A DNA stretch of 14,593 nucleotides, taken from Methanobacteriota archaeon (GTDB lineage: Archaea > JAADCQ01 > Methanopyri > Methanopyrales > Methanopyraceae). Positions within the stretch are counted from its first letter, which is position 1, and each line of letters begins with the position of its first letter. The notes under the pieces were generated by a model. The model saw nothing but the letters and a program-made list of their open reading frames with translations. It was not told the DNA's origin and searched no databases. The translations under genes and the position numbers were made by a program. Positions 1-13,618 of the stretch are shown piece after piece. The stretch is taken from contig JAMOPY010000013.1 of NCBI GenBank assembly GCA_027064305.1, positions 1 through 14,593 of the forward strand, in the 5' to 3' direction.

Positions 1-298
1 GCCGCCCGGAGAGCCGCTCCGCGAGCACCCGGGGCACGCCGCCCATGGCGTCGATCACCAGCACGTCGGTGCGGGACAGCTCGCGGTCCACCACGTCCCA
101 GGGGATCCTGGAAACGTCCTCCGGCTGCTTCGGAACCGGGTAAACGCTGACGGATACCCCCGCCTCCCGGGCCGCCTCGTGCACCCCGGTCAGCGGCGCG
201 TTCGTGAACAGGACCACGTGAACGGCGCCCACGGGCCCGCAGAACGGCGAGACCAGCGCCACCAGCGCTAAAATTAAGCGAAACGCTTTTACATCCAA
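1..298 (-). CDS. Exported protein, 5' part only (runs off the left edge); possibly the N-terminus of a CobN/Mg-chelatase-like surface protein
   Basis: Not in the ORF track; translated by hand. TTG at 298 (in-frame alternative TTG at 304) opens MDVKAFRLILALVALVSPFCGPVGA|VHVVLFTNAPLTGVHEAAREAGVSVSVYPVPKQPEDVSRIPWDVVDRELSRTDVLVIDAMGGVPRVLAERLSGR with no stop before base 1. Signal peptide is clear (K/R, hydrophobic core, V-G-A). The CobN-like guess rests only on the alpha/beta pattern (DVLVIDAMG) and context, so it is weak. Confidence 0.75.
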   Translation of the reverse strand, partial: MDVKAFRLILALVALVSPFCGPVGAVHVVLFTNAPLTGVHEAAREAGVSVSVYPVPKQPEDVSRIPWDVVDRELSRTDVLVIDAMGGVPRVLAERLSGR

Positions 299-364
299 GT
301 TCAAGAGGCCCCGCGCGGGAACGGCGTTAACCGCACCTAAATAACGGTTTGGGGGAGGCCGCGC

Positions 365-1927
365 GTGAGGCGGCTGATTCTCGCCCTCACCGCCGCCCTC
401 TGCCTCGCGGGGGCGGCGGCCGCGCACCCGGTGAACTGGGGACCGGTCATCGACAAGGCCGCGCGCTACTGGGTGGCCCTAGACGAGGCCAACCGGCTGT
501 CCCAGCAGGCGAAGGAGGGCGACCCACGGTACTACCTGTTCTCGGGCAAGAACCTCCAGCTGCACGTGTCCAAGGAGTGCGTGTACTGGACGGCCAAGTA
601 CGGTCACGCGAGGTGGGAGTCGTCCGGCGAGGTGATCTACGGGACCTACTCGGCGCTGTCCTCGATCTACGCCGCGCTGCTGAGCGGAGAGGCGCACGTC
701 AAGGACTGGCCCGAGCCCTACCGGTCCCGGATGGCGACCGCGGTGACCACCGCCCTCGCCAAGCTCCTGTCGCTGCAGCACAAGGACGGTGGCTGGGGCT
801 GGAAGGTGATCCTATCCTCGGGCACGACCCGGTTCCCATCCGGCAAGGGGCACGTCCTGAGGACGGCGCAGATCCTGGCCGACGTGGTGATCCCCGCCCT
901 GCGGCTGAACATCCGGGAGGTCACGCTGAACGGCGCCCGGTACGACGTGGCCAAGTGCGCGCAGGCGGCCGTGCGGTTCCTCCTCGACCAGCAGCTGGGA
1001 GACGGTGGATACAGCGCGAACCGGACGTGGTCGAAGACGGAGGACCCGCTGTACACGGCCCAGGCCCTACGGGCCCTGTGCGAGGCCTACCGGTACCGGG
1101 ACCTGATCGGACTGAGCGAGGCCACGGTGAACCAGATCAAGCAGGCGATCCGGAAGGCCGTGCAGTGGCTCGAATCCCACCAGAACCCGCCGAACAGCAG
1201 GGAGGGGCCGAACCTGTGGGAGATGGAGTCCGCCGCGATCATGGGCTCCCGGTACGCGCCGCCCTCGGAGGCGACGATCCTGCTCGGACTGATCGACGCG
1301 TACTCCCTCGCGGACGAGCTGGGCCTGGACAAGAACAAGCTGGCCGACTGCATCAACCGGGCCCTGAAGGCCCTCGTGGACTGGGCGGCGAAGTGCCGGA
1401 GCCACTCGGTGGTGCAGTTCGACGGCAAGAAGGCCGTCGGCTGGGCGTACTCCAGCACCCGACTGTCGGGCGTGGGCCCGTACGTGGTCCACACGGCCCG
1501 CGTGCTCATGGCGCTGACCCTCGCCCAGCGACTGGGACTGGGGAACGACGCGATACGGGAGCTCAACCAGCTCGGGGCGACGATGGAGAGCGAGCAGGAG
1601 TGGCTGTACCATGAGTGCGTGCAGTACGACGGGCTGGCCGCGTTCCCCTACCCGAACCGGGAGAACTTCGAGCGGGTGAGCGCCTCCTCGCAGATGTACG
1701 GCACCCTCTGCGCGGTGGCGTTCTCCCACCCCGAGGTGTTCCTCCAGCGGACCACCGCGGACGTGCACCGGCTGATCCCCAACGTCGGCGCGACGGAGCG
1801 GGGCACCAGCGAGACCGGCAAGGGCGGTGAAAAGACCGGCGCGAAGGGGACCCGGGGGACCCACGGGATCCCGGTCCACCCGCTGGCGGTGGCCGTCGCG
1901 CTGGCCCTCCTCCGACGCCGGCGCTAG
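365..1927 (+). CDS. Secreted, C-terminally anchored prenyltransferase/squalene-cyclase-repeat (alpha/alpha barrel) protein
   Basis: GTG start after GGGGGAGG. Signal peptide MRRLILALTAALCLAGAAAA. QW-type repeats LLSLQHKDGGWG, FLLDQQLGDGGYS and WLESHQNP. G/K/T-rich linker, then GIPVHPLAVAVALALLRRRR. Confidence 0.85.
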   Translation: MRRLILALTAALCLAGAAAAHPVNWGPVIDKAARYWVALDEANRLSQQAKEGDPRYYLFSGKNLQLHVSKECVYWTAKYGHARWESSGEVIYGTYSALSSIYAALLSGEAHVKDWPEPYRSRMATAVTTALAKLLSLQHKDGGWGWKVILSSGTTRFPSGKGHVLRTAQILADVVIPALRLNIREVTLNGARYDVAKCAQAAVRFLLDQQLGDGGYSANRTWSKTEDPLYTAQALRALCEAYRYRDLIGLSEATVNQIKQAIRKAVQWLESHQNPPNSREGPNLWEMESAAIMGSRYAPPSEATILLGLIDAYSLADELGLDKNKLADCINRALKALVDWAAKCRSHSVVQFDGKKAVGWAYSSTRLSGVGPYVVHTARVLMALTLAQRLGLGNDAIRELNQLGATMESEQEWLYHECVQYDGLAAFPYPNRENFERVSASSQMYGTLCAVAFSHPEVFLQRTTADVHRLIPNVGATERGTSETGKGGEKTGAKGTRGTHGIPVHPLAVAVALALLRRRR

Positions 1928-1960
1928 GCCCCCGCTTTTCCCCGCCTCTTCTTCTTCCCG
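1928..1960 (+). terminator. Pyrimidine-rich tract, possible archaeal terminator
   Basis: CCCCCGCTTTTCCCCGCCTCTTCTTCTTCCC directly follows the stop codon of 365..1927. Confidence 0.4.
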
Positions 1961-1989
1961 CAGTCTCCCGCCGGACCGATCCCCGGGCT

Positions 1990-2075
1990 GACTACTAAAC
2001 CATCTTTTATTATTACCGAAGATGTGTTAACCTAAGTTCACCGGTTCGAACCGATTCTAAGCTTATTATTCAGTA
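1990..2075 (+). promoter_or_regulatory. AT-rich promoter/operator region of 2109..3653
   Basis: TTATTATT twice (2007-2014, 2063-2070), inverted repeat CATCTT-N12-AAGATG (2001-2024) and perfect palindrome CGGTTCGAACCG (2042-2053), in an otherwise very GC-rich window. Confidence 0.6.
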
Positions 2076-2108
2076 AGGGACGGCGGCGCTCCCGGGGGGT
2101 CCACCCAC

Positions 2109-3653
2109 GTGAGACCCCTGGCCGTGCTCCTCGCCGCCCTGACGGCCCTGATGGGGCCCGCGCTGGCGGAGGAGGAGAGCTTCAAGGTGGCCGTGGTGCT
2201 GCCGTACCACGGCAGCTACGACCCGCACTGGGTGTACAAGGCCCACCAGCTGCCGGAGAAGCTCCAGGAGTACCTGTCGGCGACCTTCAGCGAGGGCTAC
2301 GACATCAAGGTGTACCCGGGCGAGTTCGAGACGTTCGGTGTGACCGAGGTCACGCTGCAGGGCGGCAAGACGTACGAGATCCACCAGGAGTCGATCCGGA
2401 CGGAGGAGGAGACCCTGGAGACGGAGTTCGGGTACGCGCTGAAGCAGGCGGCGCAGTTCACGAACAAGGGTAAGGACGGGCTGATCGTGATCCTGCCGGC
2501 GTTCCTGAACCGGGGCGGTCAGCACCAGGGCGTGGAGATCCCGGAGCTGATCGAGCGGGTGCTGGTGGAGGACCAGAAGGTCCCGAGGTACGCGTACGTG
2601 TACCAGCAGTTCGGCATCGCGTCCTGGGACCGGCAGGACGACCTGGGCGTCATCCCGGAGCTGATGTACAAGAACGTCGAGGCAGAGGAGGGTAAGCAGC
2701 TGGTGAACATCTCAGACTCCAACCTGCAGAGCCTGCTGAGTGGCATCCAGAACCCCACACTAGGGGACCTGATCAATACGGTCAAGAACAAGAACGAGCT
2801 CGGACTGCTGGTGATCGCGTTCGGCACGCTGAGGGTCAGCTACTGGCAGGACTACAAGGCGAACATCGAGTACGTGCTCAAGCGCCTTGCGGAGAAGCTC
2901 GGGATCGACCGGAGCAAGGCCAGGTTCTTCGCCTTCAACAACCCGGAGATCGGTCCGGAGAAGTGGGAGCAGTCTCGGTGGGACATCAGGTACAACAACT
3001 TCAAGCAGGTGATGCAGGAGCTGAACAAGGCCGGCGTGAAGTACGTGCTGGTGGTTCCGTACCTGACGGTGACGGGGATCACGGACCGGAAGCTGTTCGA
3101 GGGTAACCCGAAGCAGGGCGAGCCGGACGTGTACAACTACAAGGAGGCCATCCTGAGGCACTTCAACGCGCAGCTCGCGGCCGAGACCCAGGCTAACGAG
3201 GAGAAGTACACGTACGTGCAGAATGGTAAACAGAAGAACGTGACGGTCTACATCAACACCCGCATTTACAGGATCCCCAAGGATCAGCTGGGCACGAACG
3301 ATGACATGTACATCATCTACGTGCGGCGGGGCGTGCTGGACGCTCCGGGCGCCGTGGAGGCGGTGGCGAAGGTGCTGGCGAGCTACATCTCGCTGCAGCT
3401 GCCGACGTGGCGGCACCGGTACGAGGCGATGAAGGAGCTGGAGGGTGACGTCTCGTCCGTGAGCCGGGAGGTGCAGCAGGTGAAGCAGCGGGTGGAGGGC
3501 CTGCAGGGTAAGGTGAAGGGTCTGGAGAAGCGGGTGAGTAAGCTGGAGAAGCAGGGTGGTAAGGGTCAGCAGGGTGGTAAGAGCGGTAAGGGTCCGGTGC
3601 TACCGGTGCTGGCGCTGGTCGCGCTGCTCCCGCTGGCGGCGCGCCGGCGCTAG
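2109..3653 (+). CDS. Secreted, C-terminally anchored class II chelatase-fold (CbiX/CbiK-like) protein with coiled-coil stalk
   Basis: Signal peptide MRPLAVLLAALTALMGPALA. Domain 1 has VVLPYHGSYDP (H34) and IVILPAFLNRGGQH.GVEIP (H139), resembling CbiX/CfbA GHGS and VPxFL..G.H...DIP. Domain 2 has LLVIAFGT and GVKYVLVVPYL..G, resembling CbiK. Heptads VSSVSREVQQVKQRVEGLQGKVKGLEKRVSKLEK, then tail GPVLPVLALVALLPLAARRR. Confidence 0.8.
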   Translation: MRPLAVLLAALTALMGPALAEEESFKVAVVLPYHGSYDPHWVYKAHQLPEKLQEYLSATFSEGYDIKVYPGEFETFGVTEVTLQGGKTYEIHQESIRTEEETLETEFGYALKQAAQFTNKGKDGLIVILPAFLNRGGQHQGVEIPELIERVLVEDQKVPRYAYVYQQFGIASWDRQDDLGVIPELMYKNVEAEEGKQLVNISDSNLQSLLSGIQNPTLGDLINTVKNKNELGLLVIAFGTLRVSYWQDYKANIEYVLKRLAEKLGIDRSKARFFAFNNPEIGPEKWEQSRWDIRYNNFKQVMQELNKAGVKYVLVVPYLTVTGITDRKLFEGNPKQGEPDVYNYKEAILRHFNAQLAAETQANEEKYTYVQNGKQKNVTVYINTRIYRIPKDQLGTNDDMYIIYVRRGVLDAPGAVEAVAKVLASYISLQLPTWRHRYEAMKELEGDVSSVSREVQQVKQRVEGLQGKVKGLEKRVSKLEKQGGKGQQGGKSGKGPVLPVLALVALLPLAARRR

Positions 3654-3713: not shown

Positions 3714-4523
3714 TCAGGGGGCCTCGGCGAGTTCGTAGGGGTCGTGGTGGACGCGGACCTCGCGGCCGGGTCCGGTGAGTTCGAGCTCCGGGGCGTAGCC
3801 GAGGGATTCGAGGTCCTCGTAGAGGGGGAGGTGGCCGGAGAGGTCGCAGATCTCGGCGTTGAGGGCGCCGGCGAGGTGGGCGGCGGCCTTGACGGAGACG
3901 GCGCTCTCGAGTTCGGTGAGGATGGCGATTTTCAGGCCCTGTTCGCGGGCCTTGCGGCCGAGGAGGATGGTGTCGAGGAAGCCGACGCGTTGGACGGTGA
4001 GGGCGACGCCGTCGGCGGCGTCGAGGGCGTGGAGTTCGTCCTCGGTGCGCACCTTGACGTACACGGGGACGTCGGCGTCGAACTCGCGGGGGGTGAGCGC
4101 GATGACCTCGGCGTCGGTGGCGGCGCGGATCTCCTCGAGGGTGCGTTCGTTGGGGTGGTCGGGGAAGTCGAGGAGGATGGTGTCGAAGTCGAGGGTGGAG
4201 ATGGCGGTGGCGTGGGGGGTGTCGGCGGGGATGCGGGCGGTGGTGTAGCCGGCGGTGAGGCCGTGCTGGGCCTCGCGGGGGCCGTCCTCGGGGTGGAGGC
4301 GGAGGGCGGATTGGAGGGTGCGGGGTTCGCCGCCGAGGATCTCGGTGAGGGGTAGGCCTTCGGAGCGGGCTTCGGCGTCGAGGATGGCCATCTCGTGGGC
4401 GGTGGTGGGGTCGTAGCCGAAGCCGAGGCCGGGGGTTCCGTCGGGGGTGTGGACGCGGCAGAGGTAGCCGGTCACGGGGCCGGCGGCAGCGTTTAAGGTG
4501 AGGCGGCGGGTCTCGGCGGTCAA
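3714..4523 (-). CDS. Degenerate enolase-superfamily protein (mandelate racemase/muconate lactonizing family, L-Ala-D/L-Glu epimerase-like)
   Basis: TTG start with GGGGAG SD. Capping-domain traces RVHTPDGTPGLG and EMAILDAEAR..GLPL..ILGG. C-terminal ESAVSVKAAAHLA and DLSGHLPLYED (compare DLDGPLLLxED). The catalytic KxK and most metal ligands are not recognisable. Confidence 0.75.
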   Translation of the reverse strand: MTAETRRLTLNAAAGPVTGYLCRVHTPDGTPGLGFGYDPTTAHEMAILDAEARSEGLPLTEILGGEPRTLQSALRLHPEDGPREAQHGLTAGYTTARIPADTPHATAISTLDFDTILLDFPDHPNERTLEEIRAATDAEVIALTPREFDADVPVYVKVRTEDELHALDAADGVALTVQRVGFLDTILLGRKAREQGLKIAILTELESAVSVKAAAHLAGALNAEICDLSGHLPLYEDLESLGYAPELELTGPGREVRVHHDPYELAEAP

Positions 4524-4555: not shown

Positions 4556-5953
4556 TTGAGTCGGGTTATAGTTGTCGGAGCGGGGAGCGCGGGTCGGTCG
4601 GTCGCGCGGTTGTTGAACCACGCGGGGTGCGAGGTGGTGGTGAACGACGTGCGGGAGTGGGAGGAGTTCACGTCGGAGGAGCGGGAGTACCTGGAGGTGT
4701 TGGAGCGGGAGGGGGTGGAGGTGGTCCTGGGGGGGCACGATCCGGGGCTGTTTGAGGCGGCGGACGCGGTCTTCGTCTCGCCCGCGATCCCGGAGGGTGC
4801 GGAGGGGCGGCGGTTGGCGGAGCGGGTGCCGGAGCGGATCACGGTGCGGGACGTGGCGGAGGTGTTGGGGAGTCTCTTTCCGGTTCCGGCCGTCGGGGTG
4901 ACGGGGACGAACGGGAAGACGACCACGACCTGGGCGATCGCGCACCTGTTGGAGGCGTGTGGGTACGACGTGTGGCGGTGCTCGTCCCTGGATCGTCACC
5001 TGGTGATCGAGGCGCTCGTGGAGGGGGTGGTGACGGGGGAGGTGGAGGGGTGCGACGTGGCGGTGGTGGAGCTGCCGCACGGGACGATCCGGTTGGCGTC
5101 GGGGATTCGGCTGGACGTGGGCGTGCTGACGAACGTCGCGCCGGAGCATTTGGACGAGTTCGGGGGGTCGTTCGAGCGGTACGTGCGTCGGAAGCTGACG
5201 ATCGTGGGGATGAGTGAGACGGTCGTGGCGGGGTACGACTGTCGGGAGCTGCGGGAGCGGTTGGAGGGGGCGGTGTGGTACTCCGTGCGGAGTGGGGAGG
5301 CGGACTACTTCGGGCGTCGGGTGGACGGGAGGTTGGTGGTGGAAGGGCCGGGGTGTCGGGTGGAGGCGGGGTTCCGGCTGCTGGGTTATTACGTGGAGAA
5401 CTGCACGGGGGCCGTGGCGGCCTGCCTGGAGTTCGGGGCGGATCCGGAGGGGGTGGAGGAGGGGCTCGAGACGTTCGAGGGAGTGCCGGGTCGGATGGAG
5501 TTGGTGGGGGAGTTCGCGGGGCGGGTCGCGTACCTGGACGCGGCGCACAACCCGGAGGGTCTGCGGGCGAGCCTGCCGCCGTTTCGGGAGTTGGCGGAGG
5601 AGCGTGGGGGTCGGTTGCTCGTGAGCGTGGATAACCCGGACACGGTGACGGAGCGGGATAAGCGGGAGTTCGGGCGGATCGTGGGGGAGTTCGCGGACTT
5701 CGTGGCGGCGAGTGGGTTCAACGAGACGTTGGAGCGGCTTGACATGGATGCGGCCCGGGAGGTGGTGCGCGGGGCGGAGGAGTCGGGCTGCGAGGGGGTG
5801 GCGGTGCGGTCGGTGGAGGAGGCGGCGCGGGAGGTCGCGAGGCGTTCCCGGGAGGGGGACGTGCTGCTGCACGTGGGTCCGGGGGTGGTGAACGCGTACG
5901 AGCGGGTGCGGCGGGCGTTCCTGCGCGGGCTGTCCGGGGTGCTGGGGGGTTAG
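4556..5953 (+). CDS. Mur ligase family protein (MurD-like architecture), probable pseudomurein peptide ligase
   Basis: TTG start after GGTGAGGGGG. Rossmann-like VVGAGSAG, FVSPAIP, P-loop GVTGTNGKTTT, VVE, LTNVAPEHLD, GVPGRME and DAAHNPEG. Confidence 0.92.
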   Translation: MSRVIVVGAGSAGRSVARLLNHAGCEVVVNDVREWEEFTSEEREYLEVLEREGVEVVLGGHDPGLFEAADAVFVSPAIPEGAEGRRLAERVPERITVRDVAEVLGSLFPVPAVGVTGTNGKTTTTWAIAHLLEACGYDVWRCSSLDRHLVIEALVEGVVTGEVEGCDVAVVELPHGTIRLASGIRLDVGVLTNVAPEHLDEFGGSFERYVRRKLTIVGMSETVVAGYDCRELRERLEGAVWYSVRSGEADYFGRRVDGRLVVEGPGCRVEAGFRLLGYYVENCTGAVAACLEFGADPEGVEEGLETFEGVPGRMELVGEFAGRVAYLDAAHNPEGLRASLPPFRELAEERGGRLLVSVDNPDTVTERDKREFGRIVGEFADFVAASGFNETLERLDMDAAREVVRGAEESGCEGVAVRSVEEAAREVARRSREGDVLLHVGPGVVNAYERVRRAFLRGLSGVLGG

Positions 5954-5956
5954 GGG

Positions 5957-7504
5957 TTGCGCCGGGAGGTGATCCGGCAGGGGTTGATCTACGCGTGCGA
6001 GGAGATGGGGGCGCACCTGCGTCGGAGCGCGTTCTCGCCCAACATTCGGGAGCGGGAGGATTTCTCCTGCGCGGTGTACGACGCGGAGGGGGAGCTCGTC
6101 GCGCAGGCGGAGCACATCCCGGTGCACCTGGGGTCCATGCGCTGGGCCGTTCGGGCGGTGCTGGAGGAGTTCGATCCGGGGGAGATGGAGCCCGGGGATG
6201 CGTTTCTAGTGAACGATCCGTACCGGGGCGGCACGCACCTGCCGGATCTGACCGTCGTCGCGCCGATCTTTCACGAGGGGGAGCCGCTGGGGTTCGCGGC
6301 GGTCCGCGCGCATCACGCGGACGTGGGCGGGAAGGCGCCGGGGAGCATGCCGCACGATGCGGAGGACGTGTACGCGGAGGGGCTGCGGATCCCGCCGGTC
6401 CGGCTGGCGGAGGGTGGGGAGCCTCGGGAGGAGTTGCTGCGGCTGGTCGAGGCCAACTCGCGCGGGGGGCGGGAGCGGCGGTACGACCTGATGGCGCAGC
6501 TCTCCGCCGCGCTGTTGGGCTGCGAGCGGGTGGGGGAGCTGGTGGAGGAGCACGGGGTGGAGGCGTTCCGGGAGGCGTGCGAGTGGGCGAAGGAGTACGC
6601 GGAGCGGCGCATGAGGCGGGCGATCGAGCGGCTGCCGGACGGGGAGTATCACGGGGCGGATCGGCTGGAGGGTGATGGGGTCTCGGACGGGGACGTGTGG
6701 ATCAAGGTGACCGTGAGCGTGGAGGGGGATGAGATCACGGTCGATTTCTCGGGGACGAGCGAGCAGGTGGACGGGCCGGTCAACGCCCCGTTGCCGGTGA
6801 CGTACTCGGCGGTCTTCTTCGTGCTCAAGGCCGCGCTGGACCCGGGGACGCCCGCGTCGGAGGGGGCGTACCGGCCCATTCGCGTGCGGGCTCCGGAGGG
6901 GACGGTGGTCAACCCGCGCCCGCCGGCCCCCGTGTGCGCGGGCAACGTGGAGACGTCGCAGCGCATCGTGGACGCGGTGCTGGACGCGCTGCGGGGGGCG
7001 ATCCCCGACCTGCCGGCCCACTCGCACGGGTCGATGAACAACGTGGCGATCGGGGGCCCGGACTTCGCGTACTACGAGACGATCGGTGGGGGCGCGGGGG
7101 CCTCCCCGGAGCGGGACGGGGAGAGCGCCGTGCACGTGTACCTGACCAACACGGCCAACACGCCGGTGGAGCACGTGGAGCGGGAGTACCCGATCCGGAT
7201 CCTGGAGTACACGGTCCGTCGGGGGAGCGGTGGTGCGGGGGAGCGGCGGGGCGGGGACGGGATCGTGCGCCGGTACCTGGCGCTGGAGCGGTGTCGGGTC
7301 ACGGTGCTGGGGGACAGGGTGGAGCGGGGTCCGAGGGGGGCGGAGGGCGGTGAGCCGGGCGCGCCCGCTGAGTACTTGGTGGAGCGGGCGGACGGGTCGG
7401 TGGAGCGGTTGGGGTCGAAGGATTCGACCGTGCTCGAGCCGGGTGACATGCTCGTCGTGAAGACGGCCGGAGGCGGTGGGTACGGGCGGGTGGGAAAGGC
7501 ATGA
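5957..7504 (+). CDS. hyuB: Hydantoinase B / 5-oxoprolinase subunit B family protein
   Basis: EEMG..LRRSAFSPNIREREDFSCA, HIPVHLGSM, NDPYRGGTHLPD, HHADVGG..PGSM, EGLRIPP, GNVETSQR, YETIGGGAGA, NTPVE, and terminal TAGGGGYG. Confidence 0.93.
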   Translation: MRREVIRQGLIYACEEMGAHLRRSAFSPNIREREDFSCAVYDAEGELVAQAEHIPVHLGSMRWAVRAVLEEFDPGEMEPGDAFLVNDPYRGGTHLPDLTVVAPIFHEGEPLGFAAVRAHHADVGGKAPGSMPHDAEDVYAEGLRIPPVRLAEGGEPREELLRLVEANSRGGRERRYDLMAQLSAALLGCERVGELVEEHGVEAFREACEWAKEYAERRMRRAIERLPDGEYHGADRLEGDGVSDGDVWIKVTVSVEGDEITVDFSGTSEQVDGPVNAPLPVTYSAVFFVLKAALDPGTPASEGAYRPIRVRAPEGTVVNPRPPAPVCAGNVETSQRIVDAVLDALRGAIPDLPAHSHGSMNNVAIGGPDFAYYETIGGGAGASPERDGESAVHVYLTNTANTPVEHVEREYPIRILEYTVRRGSGGAGERRGGDGIVRRYLALERCRVTVLGDRVERGPRGAEGGEPGAPAEYLVERADGSVERLGSKDSTVLEPGDMLVVKTAGGGGYGRVGKA

Positions 7505-7788
7505 GGATCTCCGAGTTCCAGCGGTTGATGGACGAGATTTACGGGGAGAAGGACCGGGAGCGGGGCCCGGAGCGGACGCTGCTCTGGCTGGTGGAGGAGG
7601 TGGGGGAGCTGGCGGAGGCGGTGCGTCGCGGGGACGAGGAGGGGATTCGAGAGGAGCTGGCGGATGTGATCGCGTGGGCCTTCTCGCTGGCCAACGTGGT
7701 CGGGGTGGACGTGGAGGAGCTGCTGAGGGAAAAGTACCCGGGGAAGTGCCCGAAGTGCGGGCGGAAGCCCTGCCGGTGCGGCGAGTGA
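7501..7788 (+). CDS. MazG-like nucleotide pyrophosphohydrolase with Cys-rich tail
   Basis: ATGA overlap with hyuB. LVEEVGELAEA...EELADV...SLAN motif. C-terminal CPKCGRKPCRC. Confidence 0.9.
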   Translation: MRISEFQRLMDEIYGEKDRERGPERTLLWLVEEVGELAEAVRRGDEEGIREELADVIAWAFSLANVVGVDVEELLREKYPGKCPKCGRKPCRCGE

Positions 7789-8900
7789 GGGATGGGGTGA
7801 TCACGGCGGATCTGGGGTTGGTGGGCGAGGGTCTGGAGCCCTACGCGCCGGTGACGGTGGAGGTGCGGGACGGGGTGGTTCGTCGGGTCGAGGAGGGTCG
7901 CGAGCGGGGTGGTCGGTCCTACGACGCGCTCCTTCCGGCCCCGTTCAACGCCCACGTTCACGCGGCGGATTGGGCGTTTCGTCACGCGGGTCTGGGGCGG
8001 CCGCTGGAGCGGGTGGTGGCCCCGCCGGACGGGTTGAAGCACCGGCTGTTGAGGGAGGTGGATAAGGGGGAGCTGGAGGGGGCGATCGCGGGGTTTCTGG
8101 CGGCGTCGTTGCGGTTCGGCTGCCCGGGCGTGGCGGACTTTCGGGAGGGTGGTCCGGAGGGGGTGCGGTTGGGGCTGAGGGCGGCGGGCCGGGTGGGGTT
8201 CCCGGAATACGTGCCGATGGGTCGTCCGGGCTCGTGGGAGCCGGAGCGGTTGGAGGGGGAGCTGCGGCGGTTGCGGGCGGTGACGGAGTTCGTGGGCGTG
8301 CCGGACGTGCACCTGCCGGGGGAGGCGTTGGAGGCGGTGCGGGACTCGGGGCTGCGGGTGTTCGTGCACGTGAACGAGAGCTGGCGGTCGGTGCGGGAGT
8401 GCGTGCGGGAGCACGGGGTGACGGAGCTGGAGCGGGCGGTGGAGCTGCTGGAGCCGGACGGGGTGGTGCACTGCGTGGTGTTGACGGGCCGGGATGAGGA
8501 GCTGCTCAGGGAGTTGGATCCCTTGGTCGTGCTCTGCCCGCGCTCGAACGAGTACTTCGAGCTCGGGGTGCCGGAGGTGGAGCGGCTGCGGGGGTTGAGG
8601 CTCGCGCTGGGCACGGACAACGGGATGTGCGTGGAGCCGGACGTGTGGGAGGAGGCCCGGTACGCCTGGCTGCGGTTGGGGATGCGGCCGGTGGACGCGC
8701 TTCGGGCGGCGACGGTGACGCCGGCCCGGTTCTTCGGACTTCCGGTGTTGGAGGAGGGGGAGCGGTTGCGGGCGGTGGGGCTAAAGGGCGTGCCGGCGCT
8801 GGATCGGGTGGCGGGGGAGGGGTTGAACCGGGTGGTGGCTCACCTGCTGCAGGTGGTGAAGTTGGCCCGGGTGGAGGTGCTGCTGGGGGAGGGTGGTTGA
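7785..8900 (+). CDS. Metal-dependent amidohydrolase (SsnA/TRZ-ATZ deaminase-like)
   Basis: Start re-called to the GTG overlapping the MazG stop (GTGA); the track start at 7476 overlaps MazG entirely. Motifs PFNAHVHAAD (HxH), DFREGG, VHVNE, VHCV, CPRSN and LGTDNG. Confidence 0.88.
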   Translation: MRDGVITADLGLVGEGLEPYAPVTVEVRDGVVRRVEEGRERGGRSYDALLPAPFNAHVHAADWAFRHAGLGRPLERVVAPPDGLKHRLLREVDKGELEGAIAGFLAASLRFGCPGVADFREGGPEGVRLGLRAAGRVGFPEYVPMGRPGSWEPERLEGELRRLRAVTEFVGVPDVHLPGEALEAVRDSGLRVFVHVNESWRSVRECVREHGVTELERAVELLEPDGVVHCVVLTGRDEELLRELDPLVVLCPRSNEYFELGVPEVERLRGLRLALGTDNGMCVEPDVWEEARYAWLRLGMRPVDALRAATVTPARFFGLPVLEEGERLRAVGLKGVPALDRVAGEGLNRVVAHLLQVVKLARVEVLLGEGG

Positions 8901-9289
8901 TGGTTCGGTACGTCGTGCTGATGGACGGTTCGGATCCCTCGTTTCGGGCGCTGGAGTACGCGCGGGAGCGGACGGAGGACGTGATCGCGGTGTACCTGAT
9001 CGACGCGCGGGCGTTCAAGGGGTTGAACGAGGAGATGGCGCGGGCGTTGAGGGAGTTCATGCGTCAGGAGGCGTCCCTGATCGAGGAGCTGGTGAGGCGG
9101 GAGTACGGGGCGCGGTTCGAGGTGGTGGAGGGGGAGGGTCCGGAGGCCGTGATGGAGTTCGCGAAGGAGGCGGGCGCCGACGCGGTGGTGGTGGGCGTGG
9201 GCAGCGTGCCGGGGTTCGAGAAGATCACGCTCCGGCGCGGGATCGAGGAGTGCGTGCGGGATGTGCCGGTGATCTTGGTCCCGGGTTAG
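8900..9289 (+). CDS. Universal stress protein (UspA family)
   Basis: Start re-called to the ATG in the TGATG overlap. MVRYVVLMDGSDPSFRALEYA...EGEGPEAVMEFAKEAGADAVVVG...VPVILV; 129 aa. Confidence 0.88.
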   Translation: MVRYVVLMDGSDPSFRALEYARERTEDVIAVYLIDARAFKGLNEEMARALREFMRQEASLIEELVRREYGARFEVVEGEGPEAVMEFAKEAGADAVVVGVGSVPGFEKITLRRGIEECVRDVPVILVPG

Positions 9290-10887
9290 CCGAGCTCCTT
9301 GCCCATGTACGGGCCCACGCGCTCGTAGCCCAACCGTCGGTAGTACTCCCGGGTGCCGATGGCGCTGATCACGAGGATCCTCTCCGCGCCGAGCTCGCTC
9401 TCCGCGAGCTCCTCCGCCTTCTTCATCAGCCGCTCGCCGAATCCGCGGTGCTGCACCGCCTTCGAGTCCCGCTCGCCGAGGGGGACGGTGGGTCCGACGA
9501 CCTTCAGCTCGCGCACGATGGCGGTCTCCGGGTCGATCTCGGGGCGGTGCGCGTGCTCCGTGGGCTTCCGTAGGCGCAGGTACCCGAGGATCGCGTCCGC
9601 CTCCGGGTCCTCGTAGGCCAGGAAGTAGTCGACGCCGCCCCGCCACGTCCGCTCCCGGATGATGCGCAGCTCGGCCCGCTCCGGGTCGACCTCGGCTCCC
9701 TCGCGCATTCGGTGACCCGCCTCCCGGCACCGGATGCACCGGCACTTCCAGCCGCGCTCCTCCATGTACTCGTGGACGAGCTGCCGCAGGTTCGTCTTTC
9801 GGATGCCCGCCGCGGCCAGGTGCGCCGGGATGTCCCGCTGCACGCGCATGATCCGGCAGTACTCGGGGATGTACCGGCGCTTGGCCTCCGCGATCACCCG
9901 CACGGCCGTTTCCTCGTCGTACGGCTCGTACTCGCCCCGCTTCCACAGGTCGTAGAGGGGCGTGTCCTCGAAGACCATGCACGGGTAAATCTTCAGCATG
10001 TCCGGCTTGAACCGCGGGTCCTTGAACAGGCGCTTGAACATGCGGAGGTCCCGGTCGGGATCGGACCCGGGCAGGCCCGGCATCACGTGGTAGCACACCT
10101 TGAGGCCGGCGTCCTTCAGGATCCGGGTGGCCTCGATCGTGTCCCGGACCGTGTGGCCCCGCTCGACGCGCTTGAGGATGAAGTCGTAGATCGTCTGCAC
10201 GCCCACCTCGACGCGCGTGGCGCCCAGCCGGAGCATCCGGTCCACGTGCTCCTCCTTGCAGTAATCCGGGCGGGTCTCGAACGTGATCCCCACGGGCCGG
10301 TGCTCGGCGGTCTCCGCGTGCTTCTGCGCCTCCTCGATCGTGAGCGCGTCCTTGCCCGTCAGCGCGTTGAGGCACTCCCGCACGAACCACTCCTGGTAGC
10401 AGAGGGGCATGGCCGGGAACGTGCCGCCCATGATGATGAGCTCGACCTTGTCCGTCGGGTGACCCGAGATCTCCAGCTGGCGCAGCCGGGCCTCCACCTG
10501 GCGGCGCGGGTGGAAGTCGTGCTCCTTGGCCCGACGACCGGCCGGCTCCTTGCCCGTGTAGCTCTGCGGGACGCCCCGCTCCGGCCCGCCCGGGCAGTAC
10601 GCGCAGCGCCCGTGCGGGCAGGGGTACGGCTTCGCCATCACGGCGACGACGGCCACGCCCGAGATCGACCGGACGGGCTTCTTCACCACGATCTCGCGGA
10701 GCTTCCTCCGCTCCTCGGGCGTCGCGTGCTCCAGCACGTCCGCGTCCGTCGGGAACTTGGACAGCCGGTACTTACGACAGACCTCCCGCTTCGCGTCCTG
10801 CAGCTCCCTCTTCGTCCGGATCTCGCCCGAGAGCATTTTTTCGATCAGCTCGCGGCAGGCCCGCTCGAAGGCCTCGGTCTCGGACAA
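9286..10887 (-). CDS. elp3: Elp3, radical SAM + GNAT tRNA uridine(34) carboxymethyltransferase/acetyltransferase
   Basis: KPVRSISGVAVVAVM, CPHGRCAYCPGGP (radical SAM Cys motif), PQSYTGKEPA, MGGTF, ETRPD, KIYP, RVQRDIP, CRCIRCRE, QHRGFG, ISAIGTREYYRRLGY. TTG start with GGGGTGAG SD. Confidence 0.97.
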   Translation of the reverse strand: MSETEAFERACRELIEKMLSGEIRTKRELQDAKREVCRKYRLSKFPTDADVLEHATPEERRKLREIVVKKPVRSISGVAVVAVMAKPYPCPHGRCAYCPGGPERGVPQSYTGKEPAGRRAKEHDFHPRRQVEARLRQLEISGHPTDKVELIIMGGTFPAMPLCYQEWFVRECLNALTGKDALTIEEAQKHAETAEHRPVGITFETRPDYCKEEHVDRMLRLGATRVEVGVQTIYDFILKRVERGHTVRDTIEATRILKDAGLKVCYHVMPGLPGSDPDRDLRMFKRLFKDPRFKPDMLKIYPCMVFEDTPLYDLWKRGEYEPYDEETAVRVIAEAKRRYIPEYCRIMRVQRDIPAHLAAAGIRKTNLRQLVHEYMEERGWKCRCIRCREAGHRMREGAEVDPERAELRIIRERTWRGGVDYFLAYEDPEADAILGYLRLRKPTEHAHRPEIDPETAIVRELKVVGPTVPLGERDSKAVQHRGFGERLMKKAEELAESELGAERILVISAIGTREYYRRLGYERVGPYMGKELG

Positions 10888-10915
10888 CGCGTCTCACCCC
10901 CGTGGGGTGGTTGGG

Positions 10916-11428
10916 GTGCCCGGGATCGCGAAGCTCGCGGGGACCGCGCTCAAGGTGGGGTACGGGTGGGGCAAGACCCTCCAAACGTTGGGAATCAGCG
11001 CGCTCCTGCACTGGGGGATCTGGGGGCCGGTCGGGCTGGCGGTGGTGGTGGGCGTGTTCTTCCACGAGCTGGGGCACTACCTCGCCTGCCGGCTGCTGAG
11101 GGTGCCGGCGTCCGCCCCCGTGTTCCTCCCGCTCGGCGGGGCCTTCGTCGAGCACCTGCCCACCACGCCGGACACGGAGGCGCTCATCGCGGCGGCGGGC
11201 CCGTTCAGCGGGGCGCTCGCCGGGCTGATCCTCCTGCCGATCGTCCCGCACGGGGCCGCCTGGAACGCCGCGCTGCAGCTGGCCAACCTGCTCCCGATCC
11301 CGCCGCTGGACGGGTCCAAGGTGCTGGCGGGGCTGAGGGTCACCTCGGCCCGCTCGCTCGCGGCCCTGGGGCTGGCCGCGCTGACCGTGCCGCTCTGCGC
11401 GGTGCCGGTGGCGCTCGTCCTCCACTAG
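10916..11428 (+). CDS. Small site-2 protease (peptidase M50) family membrane metalloprotease
   Basis: Start re-called to GTG 10916 after GGGGTGG (the track start lies inside elp3). HELGH (HExxH) in a hydrophobic segment, AAAGP and NLLPIPPLDG; 170 aa. Confidence 0.9.
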   Translation: MPGIAKLAGTALKVGYGWGKTLQTLGISALLHWGIWGPVGLAVVVGVFFHELGHYLACRLLRVPASAPVFLPLGGAFVEHLPTTPDTEALIAAAGPFSGALAGLILLPIVPHGAAWNAALQLANLLPIPPLDGSKVLAGLRVTSARSLAALGLAALTVPLCAVPVALVLH

Positions 11429-11438
11429 GCACGCAACG

Positions 11439-11446
11439 TTTTTAAA
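11439..11446 (+). promoter_or_regulatory. TATA box of tRNA-Thr
   Basis: TTTTTAAA ending 28 nt upstream of the mature tRNA 5' end. Confidence 0.75.
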
Positions 11447-11473
11447 CGTGAGGGAGGGGCCCGGTACGGGCGC

Positions 11474-11551
<78 letters not shown>

Positions 11552-11556
11552 CCGGA

Positions 11557-11581
11557 AATCGTTACGATTCTCATAACGATC
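11557..11581. repeat. 25-bp imperfect palindrome, copy 2
   Basis: AATCGTTACGATTCTCATAACGATC between the tRNA and the convergent PP-loop gene; arms ATCGTTACGA / TCATAACGAT with one mismatch. Confidence 0.7.
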
Positions 11582-11592
11582 CTCGAGTCGGA

Positions 11593-12450
11593 TCAGCGCA
11601 GGGAGGGAAACCGATCCCGCCCGCACGCGACGTCGGCCAGCGCCATCCGGGCCAACCCCCGAGCCACGTTCTCCACGGCGAGCTCGTCCCGAACGCGGGC
11701 CAGCCGGCGGATCCCCTCCACGGCCTCCGCGGCCAGCCGGCGGGGGGAGTCGGCGTCCCGGTACCGCTTCGCGTGCGGGCACTCCGGCTCGACCCTAGGC
11801 AGGCCCAACCGCTCGCGGATCTCCCGGTAGATCCGGGCCGTGCGGAGCTCGCTGACCACGTACAGGGGACGGAGGAGGTAGGCGTCATCCTCCTCCAGGT
11901 ACTCCGCGGGCGGGAACGTGCCCGCTCCCCGGGCCCGGTTCGCGCTCATCAGCAGCGTCTCCAGCGCGTCCTCGGCCGTGTGCCCGTACACGACCCAGTC
12001 GTACCGCTCCGCGAGCTCCCGGCGGCGCAGGGCGGAGCAAACCTTGCACGGCGGCTTGTTCATCTCCTCCGCCAGGTCCTCCACGTCCTCGGACGGTCGC
12101 ACGAACTTCAGCCTGTAGCCCAACTCCTCGGCCATCCGCTCCAGGTCCCGCCGATACGGGCGCCAGATCTCCACCCCTCGGACGCGCACGTCGACGGTCA
12201 CGAGCCGCGCCTCCGCGTCCCACCCCTCGAGGAAGGGTCGAAGGGCGAGCGCGCAGGTGAAGCTGTCCTTGCCCCCGCTGAAACCGATCGCCAGGTCGCC
12301 CTCGGGCTCGCCGAACGCCTCGGAGACCGCCTCCAGCACGGCGGAGACGTTCTCGTGGACCCTCCGGTAATCCTCCCCGTACACGGAGTTGGGGGCGAGC
12401 GGCCTCGCGTCCCAGGACACGGTCAACCCTTTCAGCCTCGTGACCCGCAC
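11593..12450 (-). CDS. TtcA/TtuA(Ctu1/NcsA)-like PP-loop ATPase, probable tRNA thiolation enzyme
   Basis: GFSGGKDS (PP-loop), PCKVCSALRR (CxxC), GHTAED, LRPLY and CPHA. Start re-called to GTG 12450 after GAGGGGG; the track's extra N-terminus overlaps the sRNA candidate. Confidence 0.87.
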   Translation of the reverse strand: MRVTRLKGLTVSWDARPLAPNSVYGEDYRRVHENVSAVLEAVSEAFGEPEGDLAIGFSGGKDSFTCALALRPFLEGWDAEARLVTVDVRVRGVEIWRPYRRDLERMAEELGYRLKFVRPSEDVEDLAEEMNKPPCKVCSALRRRELAERYDWVVYGHTAEDALETLLMSANRARGAGTFPPAEYLEEDDAYLLRPLYVVSELRTARIYREIRERLGLPRVEPECPHAKRYRDADSPRRLAAEAVEGIRRLARVRDELAVENVARGLARMALADVACGRDRFPSLR

Positions 12451-12457
12451 GGGCCGT

Positions 12458-12525
12458 CCCCCTCGGCAGCGGTCTCCCCGATCATCCCGCCCTCGGGTCA
12501 CCCCCGCCCTCTCGTCATCCGGGGG
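12458..12525 (-). ncRNA. Candidate C/D box guide sRNA
   Basis: Minus strand reads CCCCC-GG-ATGACGA(C)-GAGGGCGGGG-GTGA(D')-CCCGAGGGCGGG-ATGATCG(C')-GGGAGACCGCTG-CCGA(D)-GGGGG: 68 nt, 5-bp terminal stem, guides of 10 and 12 nt. Confidence 0.75.
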
Positions 12526-12535
12526 TGAGGGGCGC

Positions 12536-13618
12536 GTGTGGAGGGCGGAGCGACGGCTGGCGCTGGTCTACGACGAGGAGTACCTGGAGCACGAGCAGCA
12601 CCCCACGCACCCGGAGCGGCGGGAGCGCCTCTCCTACACCGTGGACCGGCTGCGCGAGGAGGGCGTGCTCGAGGTGGAGGGGATCGAGCTGGTCGAGCCG
12701 AGGCCGGCGGGGAGGGAGGAGCTTGAGCTGGTGCACGAGCCGGAGCACGTGGAACTGATCCGCCGGATGAGCGAGCAGGGTGGCGGGGTCATCGACGCGG
12801 ACACGATCGTCACGGGTCGCACGTACGAGCAGGCGAGGCTGGCGGCGGGCGGGGCCCTCCGGGCGGTCGAGCTGACGGTGAGCGGGGAGTACGACGTCGC
12901 CTTCGCCATGGTGAGGCCGCCCGGGCACCACGCGGGCCGGGCGAAGGCGGCGGGCTTCTGCTACTTCAACAACGTTGCGATCGCCGCGGAGTACGCGCTC
13001 CGGGAGCTCGGCGTGGAGCGGATCGCGATCCTGGACTGGGACGCGCACCACGGGGACGGGACGCAGGAGATCTTCTACGACCGGGACGACGTGCTGTACG
13101 TCTCCATTCACCAGGACGGTAGGACCCTGTACCCGGGCACCGGGTTCCCGCATGAGGTGGGTGAGGGGAGGGGCGAGGGGTACACCGTGAACATCCCGGT
13201 ACCCCCGGGCTCGGGGGACCGCACCTACCGACGGGCCTTCGAGCGGATCATCGACCCGATCGTGCGCGAGTACGGGCCCGACCTGATCCTGATCTCCGCG
13301 GGCCAGGACTGCCACTTCACCGACCCGATCACGAACCTGTCGGTGACCGCCCGCGGCTACGAGTGGATGATGCGGAGGGCGGTGAAGCTGGCCGAGGAGG
13401 TGAACGCCCTAGGTCCCGTGGCGGTGCTGGAGGGCGGCTACTCCGTGGAGGACGGGCTCCCGTACACCAACCTGGCCGTCATCTGCGGGCTGGCCGGGCT
13501 GCCCACGGACCTGCGCGAGCCGGTCGGGTCACCGGAGGAGAACCCGGAGGGCCCCGAGCGGGTGGAGGAGGTGGCACGGCGCCTCTCGGGGTACTGGGAG
13601 GTCCTCAGCCGGTCCTGA
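12536..13618 (+). CDS. Zn-dependent histone deacetylase family protein (HDAC/AcuC/HdaH-like)
   Basis: Start re-called to GTG 12536 after GGGGGTGAGG. HPERRERL, RPPGHHA, GFCYFNN, LDWDAHHGDGTQ, SIHQ..LYPGTG, SAGQD and LEGGY. Confidence 0.95.
   Translation: MWRAERRLALVYDEEYLEHEQHPTHPERRERLSYTVDRLREEGVLEVEGIELVEPRPAGREELELVHEPEHVELIRRMSEQGGGVIDADTIVTGRTYEQARLAAGGALRAVELTVSGEYDVAFAMVRPPGHHAGRAKAAGFCYFNNVAIAAEYALRELGVERIAILDWDAHHGDGTQEIFYDRDDVLYVSIHQDGRTLYPGTGFPHEVGEGRGEGYTVNIPVPPGSGDRTYRRAFERIIDPIVREYGPDLILISAGQDCHFTDPITNLSVTARGYEWMMRRAVKLAEEVNALGPVAVLEGGYSVEDGLPYTNLAVICGLAGLPTDLREPVGSPEENPEGPERVEEVARRLSGYWEVLSRS

Follow-up and report, generated by a model that had tools for sequence, protein, structure and literature searches.

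Three adjacent genes at the left end of an archaeal contig (JAMOPY010000013.1) raise the question of why proteins resembling metal chelatases should carry export signals in a methanogen. The genes lie in bases 1-3653 of the window, by which we mean the whole stretch of DNA that was analysed (14,593 bases, C13:1-14593, 70% G+C); the assembly that holds it (G000) comprises 1.21 Mb in 50 contigs, is 89% complete and has a G+C content of ~70%. Protein searches placed the nearest relatives in Methanopyrus or the Methanopyraceae. Methanogens need much Ni, for F430 and hydrogenases, and much Co, for corrinoids, and to our knowledge the acquisition of both metals by these organisms at trace levels is only partly understood. 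We put a probability of roughly one half on the reading that the cluster specifies an ATP-independent extracytoplasmic module for the acquisition of Ni/Co or tetrapyrroles in a methanogen of the Methanopyrus lineage. Its components would be a giant CobN-like protein (2-304, minus strand, running past the contig end), an exported alpha/alpha toroid (365-1927, plus strand) and an exported CbiX-like protein (2109-3653, plus strand), whose probable task is to handle, outside the cell, nickel, cobalt or ring cofactors that carry a metal.

The first ~101 codons of the CobN-like gene fall within the window, where they encode a signal or anchor helix followed by the start of a head domain (signal peptides, cleavage sites and terminal membrane helices were throughout read by eye from sequence). 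The start codon is a TTG at position 304 or 298, the N-terminus reads MNLDVKAFRLILALVALVSPFCGPVGA followed by VHVVLFTNAPL, and the gene is truncated at the start of C13. The 101 residues in the window had no match in Pfam or NCBIfam and none in 15 genomes from other families; they matched the N-termini of very long open reading frames (ORFs) in four of the five other genomes of the same genus (30-79% identity), and were 61-79% identical to the N-termini of orthologs. The remainder of the gene was located at G000:C12:28428-32981 (minus strand, 1518 aa), the full protein being of ~1800 aa. The end of C12 and the start of C13 show no sequence overlap, and the assembly gap between them within the gene is of ~180 codons (~540 bp). 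The C12 piece matches PF02514 (CobN-Mg_chel) with an E-value of 3.6e-156 (match region G000:C12:29340-32912), and this family covers the whole core of the orthologs P0001, from the complete genome G001 of the same genus (1736 aa, E-value 1.3e-168), and P0002 (G003, 1800 aa, E-value 8.5e-157). The CobN-like identity of the left gene, advanced as a guess in the initial annotation, is hence confirmed by sequence comparison, which assigns the gene product to the large subunits of class I chelatases.

Comparison with PDB sequences returned CobN (7c6o) as the best match to this protein (233 bits), followed by ChlH (222 bits) and HmuS (9d26, 191 bits). The active-site motifs of class I chelatases are kept in the form of VGTHGTFEFLPG (GTHGTFEFLPG), PTGRN and NPGEGTLAKYRG, and the H-x-G-x-H-G motif is present in the protein of this locus as VYVGTHGTFEFLPG. 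Of the 18 archaeal sequences in the alignment, 16 retain the catalytic His of this motif, the exceptions being L066 and L068. The His of GTHG is the counterpart of His-538 of HmuS, which the HmuS study shows to be essential; passages of that study give LSLDHxxEFMGG as the motif of the HmuS family, containing His-1209 and Glu-1212 (PMC12583661). In the phmmer alignment to 9d26 this segment of HmuS ('alsldhvyefmgg') stands opposite 'vidvndyyswagg', with Asp in the place of His-1209 and Ser in that of Glu-1212, as in CobN. The CobN-like protein is therefore not an HmuS but forms a separate branch within the superfamily. In a FastTree phylogeny of 18 archaeal CobN sequences, L1 and L2 were sisters (support 100), with L3 and L4 joining as long branches. 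Scans of the neighbouring genes in the window, G001 and G003 found no CobS/T or ChlI/D, and no genome-wide search for ChlI/CobS was made.

The second gene (365-1927, plus strand) encodes a 520-aa protein with the predicted signal peptide MRRLILALTAALCLAGAAAA (365-424), followed by HP, in a low-confidence N-terminal helix. An AlphaFold2 (AF2) model built on 7 sequences (predicted local distance difference test score, pLDDT, 77.8; predicted template modelling score, pTM, 0.82) displays an alpha/alpha (six-hairpin) toroid of the prenyltransferase/squalene-cyclase-repeat type, in agreement with the alpha/alpha barrel proposed for it initially. In a VIA-wide structural search against representatives, the model matched drimenyl-diphosphate synthase (Z 25.4, 20% identity), a polysaccharide hydrolase (Z 24.6, 12% identity), squalene-hopene cyclase (Z 24.4, 17% identity), several glycoside hydrolases (Z 24-22, 7-11% identity; GH76, GH88 and GH105 among the matches) and complement C4dg (Z 22.9, 17% identity). 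Bovine transcobalamin followed at rank 49, with a Z of 19.1, a root-mean-square deviation (rmsd) of 5.3 and 10% identity. The argument from transcobalamin that had been put forward for this protein stands as far as the common fold is concerned, but goes no further than the fold, since terpene cyclases, glycoside hydrolases and the thioester-containing domain (TED) of complement all outrank transcobalamin.

The Pfam match of the toroid to SQHop_cyclase_C (E-value 1.3e-4, 21.6 bits) lies under the cut-off of 26.1 bits, and its NCBIfam squalene-cyclase matches are likewise sub-threshold; the paralogs L2_512 and L4_408 pass SQHop_cyclase_C, at 45.6 and 46.1 bits. The protein contains two Q-x2-DGG repeats, with DGG at residues 141 and 213. 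DxDD, the defining catalytic motif of class II cyclases, is absent from the 520-aa sequence, as is the CGEQ thioester motif, and Pfam detected no further domain, including the DUF4430-type beta domain of transcobalamin. The toroid family comprised 7 matches, all of Methanopyrus type, and the ESM Atlas yielded only leads scoring below 0.9, to anchored prenyltransferase-like proteins.

The product of the third gene (2109-3653, plus strand, 514 aa) begins with the predicted signal peptide MRPLAVLLAALTALMGPALA (2109-2168), followed by EE, residues 1-22 having a pLDDT <50, and consists of a chelatase core, a coiled-coil stalk, a Gly/Lys/Gln linker and a C-terminal tail. The stalk is a long helix spanning residues ~415-482 (3351-3554), assigned by DSSP and with weak matches to coiled-coil families; together with the tail it forms a module that also matches other surface proteins in the genus. 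An AF2 model based on 10 family members (mean pLDDT 80.8, pTM 0.77) shows a two-domain class II chelatase fold of the CbiX/SirB/CfbA type. Foldseek matched the model to ferrochelatases (HemH), periplasmic CbiK and SirB at probability 1.00 (E-value ~4e-4 to 1e-3). With VIA it aligned to the coproporphyrin ferrochelatase CpfC (Z 18.2, rmsd 3.6, 265 aligned residues), SirB (Z 16.8, 17-18% identity), CbiK (Z 15.5), the periplasmic CbiK of Desulfovibrio vulgaris (Z 15.5) and FetB of Porphyromonas gingivalis (Z 15.3), and its N-terminal domain to the Ni-chelatase CfbA (Z 10.0, 28% identity over 105 residues).

The two residues forming the catalytic pair of CbiX/CfbA-type enzymes are invariant in the ten family members: His34 in the YHGS motif (2208-2210) and His139 in PAFLNRGGQHQ (2523-2525). 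An hhalign comparison placed this pair opposite GHGS and PVFLAHGVH of the CfbA of the same genome, with an E-value of 0.013 and a low probability, which reflects the use of a single sequence as the CfbA template. The family has six invariant His residues in all (H34, H40, H46, H92, H139 and H351), and the second domain, which lacks the His pair, features FGT and TVTGITDRK. The class II chelatase fold that the initial annotation had assigned to this gene is thereby confirmed in the model, with its catalytic His pair intact. Sequence similarity to established families is limited, with a Pfam CbiX match of 26.5 bits (cut-off 22) over just 28 residues and NCBIfam scores of 13.3 bits for CfbA (cut-off 120) and 13.2 bits for CbiK (cut-off 400). 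A profile search against PDB sequences returned nothing at E<=1. A word-based search gave 13 matches, of which 12 belong to the protein's own family and one covers the coiled coil alone, and an exhaustive search with HMMER across 1.84 billion representatives gave three, all within the family, leaving no sequence relative outside it among those representatives. A scan of genome contigs recovered two loci, both from the same genus-level group. As judged by these searches, the CbiX-like family is confined to the Methanopyrus lineage.

The structural matches of both partner proteins also bear on a possible role in the cell envelope, in which the three proteins would be components of the wall or surface layer that bind or remodel pseudomurein or glycans, with chelatase folds co-opted as modules akin to binding proteins and a toroid that binds glycans or resembles a hydrolase. 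Foldseek detected a resemblance of the class II fold to periplasmic binding proteins, the toroid matches the hydrolases listed above at Z 24.6-22, and the pseudomurein peptide ligase pMurD1 (4556-5953) lies close by in a synteny kept within the genus. Among other archaea, one exported CobN-like protein occurs as a fusion with DUF3344, CARDB and CBM domains and adjoins a NosD/beta-helix protein with pseudomurein-binding repeats. However, the class II His pair is invariant, and paralogs have kept the active-site motifs of class I, which would be unexpected of purely structural proteins. In addition, the three other paralogous loci of G001 do not adjoin pMur genes, and terpene cyclases (20% and 17% identity) match the toroid best when Z and identity are both considered, against 8-12% for glycosidases. 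We therefore regard an envelope function as unlikely.

The case for export was examined at both ends of each protein. As in Sec-type signal peptides, the basic n-region of all three gene products leads into a hydrophobic core and then an Ala-rich end, in line with the three adjacent signal-peptide genes originally described. P0001, P0002 and the pieces from G000 share a common layout, in which the chelatase body stands between an N-terminal hydrophobic signal and a low-complexity Ala/Ser/Arg/Pro linker, and the linker leads to a C-terminal membrane helix and basic residues; the C12 piece ends in such a linker and RIWEWVLALMLTLLALSVGALWKRR. Because basic residues precede the first helix and follow the last one, the body of the CobN-like protein would, by the positive-inside rule, lie outside the membrane. 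The toroid ends in the tail IPVHPLAVAVALALLRRRR (1868-1924), composed of PxxP, a short hydrophobic stretch and an Arg cluster, and the CbiX-like protein in the tail PVLPVLALVALLPLAARRR (3594-3650), identified by sequence and family alignment. The claim that the products are exported and anchored thus found backing in N-terminal signals and in C-terminal tails or helices.

These same features speak against a more conventional interpretation, according to which the genes encode ordinary cytoplasmic chelatases of B12 or F430 biosynthesis whose hydrophobic ends have been misread as export signals. Cofactor biosynthesis is the normal occupation of the CobN and CbiX families, and passages of an earlier genome paper put forward additional CobN paralogs in methanogens, MTBMA_c10550-10570, as possible nickel chelatases (PMC3087415). 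Set against this, all three genes start with signal-like segments and end with membrane tails, and the genome encodes a separate canonical CobN free of such ends (1182 aa, without a signal) and a 147-aa cytoplasmic CfbA/CbiX (G000:C29, L028:1471-1914, minus strand), which makes the exported set an addition to the canonical enzymes. Furthermore, the proteins of this cluster miss the NCBIfam equivalog cut-offs, the CobN-like protein all of those for CobN and BchH (e.g. 404 vs 829 bits) and the CbiX-like protein those for CfbA and CbiK (13 vs 120/400 bits). We consider a cytoplasmic role very improbable.

The tails of the two complete proteins, GIPVHPLAVAVALALLRRRR and GPVLPVLALVALLPLAARRR, are alike and correspond to the shared anchor tail noted at the outset, consisting of PxxP, 10-13 hydrophobic residues and RRR(R). 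A regular expression for this form retrieved six ORFs in G000, three of them loose matches and three clear ones (the toroid, the CbiX-like protein and C40:51653-53059), the latter all in CobN-like loci. The tails matched no named CTERM model at E<=1. G000 encodes a 164-aa protein of the archaeosortase/exosortase family (G000:C29:13702-14196; L027:1444-1938, minus strand), which scores 40.8 bits against TIGR04178 (cut-off 23) and reaches no cut-off for a named subtype. It is possible that the tail serves as an anchor or as an archaeosortase-type sorting signal, with this protein as a candidate processor. The gene for the cytoplasmic CfbA/CbiX, which bears a His/Asp-rich insert (HGHDHDHGHHHHHDHH), lies ~4.3 kb from the archaeosortase-family gene on the same contig. 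At the right end of the window, an ORF without a family match (13605-14591, minus strand) extends beyond the edge, and its C-terminus, GPFVHLPVLVLLLRRRVRTG, resembles both tails.

Comparison across the genus, which had been suggested as a check on the neighbourhood, revealed that the order and orientation of the three genes are conserved in G001, G002, G003 and G005. In G002, a complete genome of 1.69 Mb (C1, L018), the CobN-like gene of this locus appears as two ORFs (1578 and 163 aa, 6794-12026) and the toroid as two overlapping ORFs (283 and 213 aa, 12031-13385), next to an intact CbiX-like gene (505 aa); frameshifts, pseudogenes or sequencing errors could account for these split ORFs. The complete genome G001 contains six CobN-family loci, two of them of cytoplasmic type (one a canonical ORF of 1214 aa, the other a split pair) and four of exported type, with a signal peptide and a C-terminal helix. 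In all four exported loci the CobN-like gene adjoins an exported alpha/alpha toroid with the same kind of tail, as shown by Pfam or BLAST in three cases and by hhalign in one. Locus 1, which corresponds to the cluster studied here, combines a CobN-like protein of 1736 aa, a toroid of 474 aa and a 508-aa CbiX-like protein. Locus 2 pairs a CobN-like protein of 1775 aa with a 512-aa toroid (SQHop_cyclase_C, E-value 6.5e-12; 34% identical to the locus-1 toroid) and a 583-aa beta-rich coiled-coil protein, and locus 4 one of 1334 aa with a 408-aa toroid (E-value 4.5e-12) and a 436-aa helical coiled-coil protein. At locus 3, the CobN-like protein has 2112 aa and its toroid 582 aa (hhalign probability 90%, E-value 1.7e-6), and no third partner was seen.

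G000 itself holds locus 1, locus 4 (C40) and a locus-2 CobN-like gene truncated at the end of C50. The paralogous clusters map to L059 (6097-14732), L060 (5053-13204) and L061 (5298-12073) in G001 and to C40:50412-56562 and C50:20428-25092 in G000, and their accessory proteins all end in V-P-x-x-P, a hydrophobic stretch and RRR. The arrangement of the genes differs among loci, being divergent in some and same-strand in others, and the pairing is thus not that of one copied block. A functional link between the CobN-like protein and the toroid that goes beyond synteny is thereby supported by genome comparison, in keeping with the linkage that had been claimed for these genes. It could be argued that the three genes are chance neighbours, sharing a secretion route and no joint work, given that synteny inside one genus is weak evidence; a predicted complex of the toroid (22-470) and the CbiX-like protein (23-440) scored 0.00 against a mark of 0.32, which is evidence neither for nor against. 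Nevertheless, the pairing of CobN-like protein and toroid at four of four paralogous loci in differing arrangements, and the restriction of the three clear tail cases in G000 to CobN-like loci, make this quite unlikely.

Related proteins in other archaea provide a context of transport. PF02514 was found in 24 of the 121 related archaeal genomes searched, and the comparison outside the family covered 12 loci in six genomes of other families, in which 13 CobN-like ORFs of large size (1248-2394 aa) were present. A hydrophobic anchor and basic residues close every one of the 13, and ten have a signal-like start, the starts of the other three being uncertain. A triple of genes encoding DUF2162, MotA/ExbB and DUF2149 proteins accompanies the CobN-like gene in six of the 12 loci (all three members were confirmed by Pfam in L063 and DUF2162 in L073, with the remaining loci assigned by resemblance). 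At one locus the Pfam matches were DUF2162 ('predicted transporter', E-value 7e-68), MotA/TolQ/ExbB (E-value 3e-11) and DUF2149 (E-value 3e-21). CbiM was found in two of the 12 loci, in one case confirmed by Pfam (E-value 6.5e-42). The loci with such neighbours, or with the DUF3344 fusion described above, are L063, L066, L069, L070, L072, L073 and L074. In the Methanopyrus genomes, the DUF2162-ExbB-like-DUF2149 operon, cbiMQO and nikR each occur once and far from the four CobN-like loci, so that the nearby ABC or ECF transporter envisaged initially is not found where it was expected.

These neighbours would also suit pure capture of metal ions, in which the ectodomains of the CobN-like and CbiX-like proteins act as Ni2+/Co2+ metallochaperones feeding CbiMQO or DUF2162-type transporters and no tetrapyrrole is involved. 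Besides the association of exported CobN-like proteins with CbiM and with DUF2162/ExbB-like/DUF2149 genes in other archaea, the six invariant His residues of the CbiX-like family would fit such a role. So would the increase of CobN1, a protein annotated as CobN and made only under Ni limitation, in Methanothermobacter marburgensis, recorded in passages of a 2025 proteome study that also list a 'Transporter, MTBMA_c10530' (PMC12350162). The retention of the motifs lining the class I tetrapyrrole cleft argues otherwise, as does the toroid partner present at four of four loci, which is more easily explained by a large organic ligand. On balance, metal capture without any tetrapyrrole appears doubtful, if less so than the other alternatives.

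The acquisition module that we favour would operate as follows. The giant CobN-like class I subunit would be held at the membrane by its N- and C-terminal helices with its bulk outside, and the exported toroid and the CbiX/SirB-like class II chelatase on its coiled-coil stalk would complete the assembly. At the cell surface, the module would bind either metal-tetrapyrroles or Ni/Co(/Fe) in free form, would strip or hand over the metal or the whole ring, and would pass the product to membrane transporters encoded elsewhere in the genome, either DUF2162/ExbB-like/DUF2149 or CbiMQO. As the constant partner, the toroid may serve to bind the organic ligand or to dock the enzyme. The conservation of the class I cleft motifs and of the intact class II His pair argues that metal and tetrapyrrole chemistry has been retained. 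A location outside the membrane, the lack of ATP or an AAA+ partner there, and the presence of cytoplasmic CobN and CfbA elsewhere in the genome argue against ATP-driven insertion of the CobNST or ChlHID type. We infer the outside location, the independence from ATP, the substrate, the direction of the reaction and the hand-over to transporters from the features described above.

Several observations weigh against such a module. Export is deduced from sequence features read by eye, none of the four Methanopyrus loci contains a transporter gene, and hidden Markov models (HMMs) of the toroid and of the CbiX-like protein had no match at E<=1 in the 12 loci of other archaea. The likeness of the toroid to glycan-acting enzymes (Z 24.6-22), together with the position of pMurD1 two genes from the locus, would suit the unlikely cell-wall role instead. 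The CobN-like protein scores 191 bits against HmuS, no better than against CobN (233 bits) or ChlH (222 bits), and a dechelatase mechanism identical to that of HmuS is not supported by the sequence, in which the dyad of His-1209 and Glu-1212 is replaced by Asp and Ser. Finally, the public sequencing runs matching the window include no RNA run.

The DNA between the genes had been described as AT-rich and operator-like. The first of these descriptions applies to one of the two regions concerned: the spacer between the toroid and the CbiX-like gene (1928-2108) contains an intergenic AT-rich island at 1985-2075 (37% G+C), but the second AT-rich patch (268-300, 33% G+C) lies within the coding sequence for the signal peptide of the left gene, and the spacer that separates the divergent CobN-like and toroid genes (305-364) has a G+C content of 68%. 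The second description found no support. No inverted repeat was detected in the divergent spacer (255-375 searched), and those in 1920-2115 were just two and weak. A TAAATAA element located ~25 nt ahead of the toroid GTG start codon at 365 could be read as a TATA box. In the other spacer, a block at 2019-2075 of the form GTT[A/G]AC...TTC...TAA, followed by T/A-rich sequence, is conserved in five species and would most simply be the promoter of the CbiX-like gene itself. Inspection by eye of the upstream regions of the four CobN-like loci of G001, its DUF2162 operon, cbiM and nikR revealed no common motif.

Downstream of the cluster, the window contains a gene for a 269-aa protein without a Pfam or NCBIfam family (3714-4523, minus strand), whose position between the CbiX-like gene and pMurD1 is conserved (G001 L016:14577-15398). 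It is followed by pMurD1 (4556-5953, plus strand; 575 bits against a cut-off of 610) and, directly after it, by a gene of the hydantoinase B/oxoprolinase family (5957-7504, plus strand; E-value 6e-199). A tRNA-Thr (GGT) gene is present at 11474-11551 (plus strand). Among public sequencing runs, five DNA runs from two studies contain at least half of the words of the stretch, and one run from each of two studies (X1, and X6 with a small share) is labelled as a hydrothermal vent metagenome.

Two protein families restricted to this lineage, and a candidate for a new C-terminal sorting tail, emerge from the cluster. It also gives the question of the archaeal CobN-like proteins a concrete and testable form, with exported, anchored CobN-like proteins that keep their active-site motifs, a recurring toroid partner and, at this locus, an exported CbiX-type chelatase whose His pair is intact. 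A broader and rather doubtful conjecture would be that chelatase chemistry of both class I and class II takes place extracellularly in Methanopyrus and, more widely, in methanogens. A tethered CobN-like protein with an obligatory toroid in place of the AAA+ motor, here joined by an exported CbiX-like protein, would strip Ni or Co from metallotetrapyrroles of the environment, such as F430, corrinoids or sedimentary Ni-porphyrins, or load them, without ATP, and feed DUF2162/ExbB-like or CbiMQO importers. If true, this would constitute an archaeal counterpart of heme-iron piracy, directed at the metals of methanogenesis. Extracellular handling of Ni/Co or tetrapyrroles by such proteins has as yet no demonstration in archaea.

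Extracytoplasmic members of the chelatase families are already known in bacteria, in the form of HmuS, periplasmic CbiK and FetB. An archaeal set in which members of both chelatase classes occur with a recurring toroid partner and a distinctive tail appears, in the literature searched, to be undescribed: the search returned no account of exported CobN-like proteins with toroid partners, nothing on CobN combined with 'squalene oxidase repeat' or on DUF2162, and, for Methanopyrus and CobN, passages of two papers in which no exported CobN figures. Passages of the HmuS study do describe archaeal homologs of HmuS, CobN and ChlH as numerous and call their role unclear (PMC12583661).

HmuS of Bacteroides thetaiotaomicron (9d26) is likewise a member of the CobN/ChlH superfamily, with >1400 aa, and the same passages report that it de-chelates heme independently of ATP, has predicted N- and C-terminal anchoring helices and is encoded with ExbB/ExbD-type genes (PMC12583661). 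The Methanopyrus CobN-like protein shares with it a predicted single membrane helix at each end and the conserved His of HxGxHG, and HmuS, too, works without AAA+ partners. The DUF2162/ExbB-like layout found in other archaea resembles the hmu operon. The two systems differ in that no hmuY/hmuR-type genes are present here, the toroid and CbiX-like partners are absent from hmu, and the host of HmuS is a diderm bacterium, whereas the present one is an archaeon with a pseudomurein wall. With respect to CobN and ChlH themselves, the CobN-like protein is distinguished by its predicted signal peptide and C-terminal anchor, by ~500 extra residues and by the absence of CobS/T or ChlI/D from the locus.

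The toroid protein adopts in its model the same fold as terpene cyclases and prenyltransferases, complement TED and the alpha domain of transcobalamin, from which it is set apart as a single toroid with a signal peptide and a tail, devoid of DxDD and CGEQ. On the class II side, the periplasmic CbiK of D. vulgaris (CbiKP, 2xvx/2xvz) and FetB of P. gingivalis (9b86) exhibit the same fold outside the cytoplasm, with ~250-259 residues matched. Sequence identity to them is just 11-13%, and the CbiX-like protein differs from both in its beta-rich insertion, coiled-coil stalk and C-terminal tail. Its His pair lies in the N-terminal domain, as in CbiX, SirB and CfbA and unlike that of CbiK, which we take to be in the C-terminal domain. 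The CbiX-like protein differs from CfbA, CbiXS and SirB in its predicted export and anchoring and in a second domain without a His pair, but keeps the HGS and P-x-F-L...G-x-H motifs characteristic of these enzymes.

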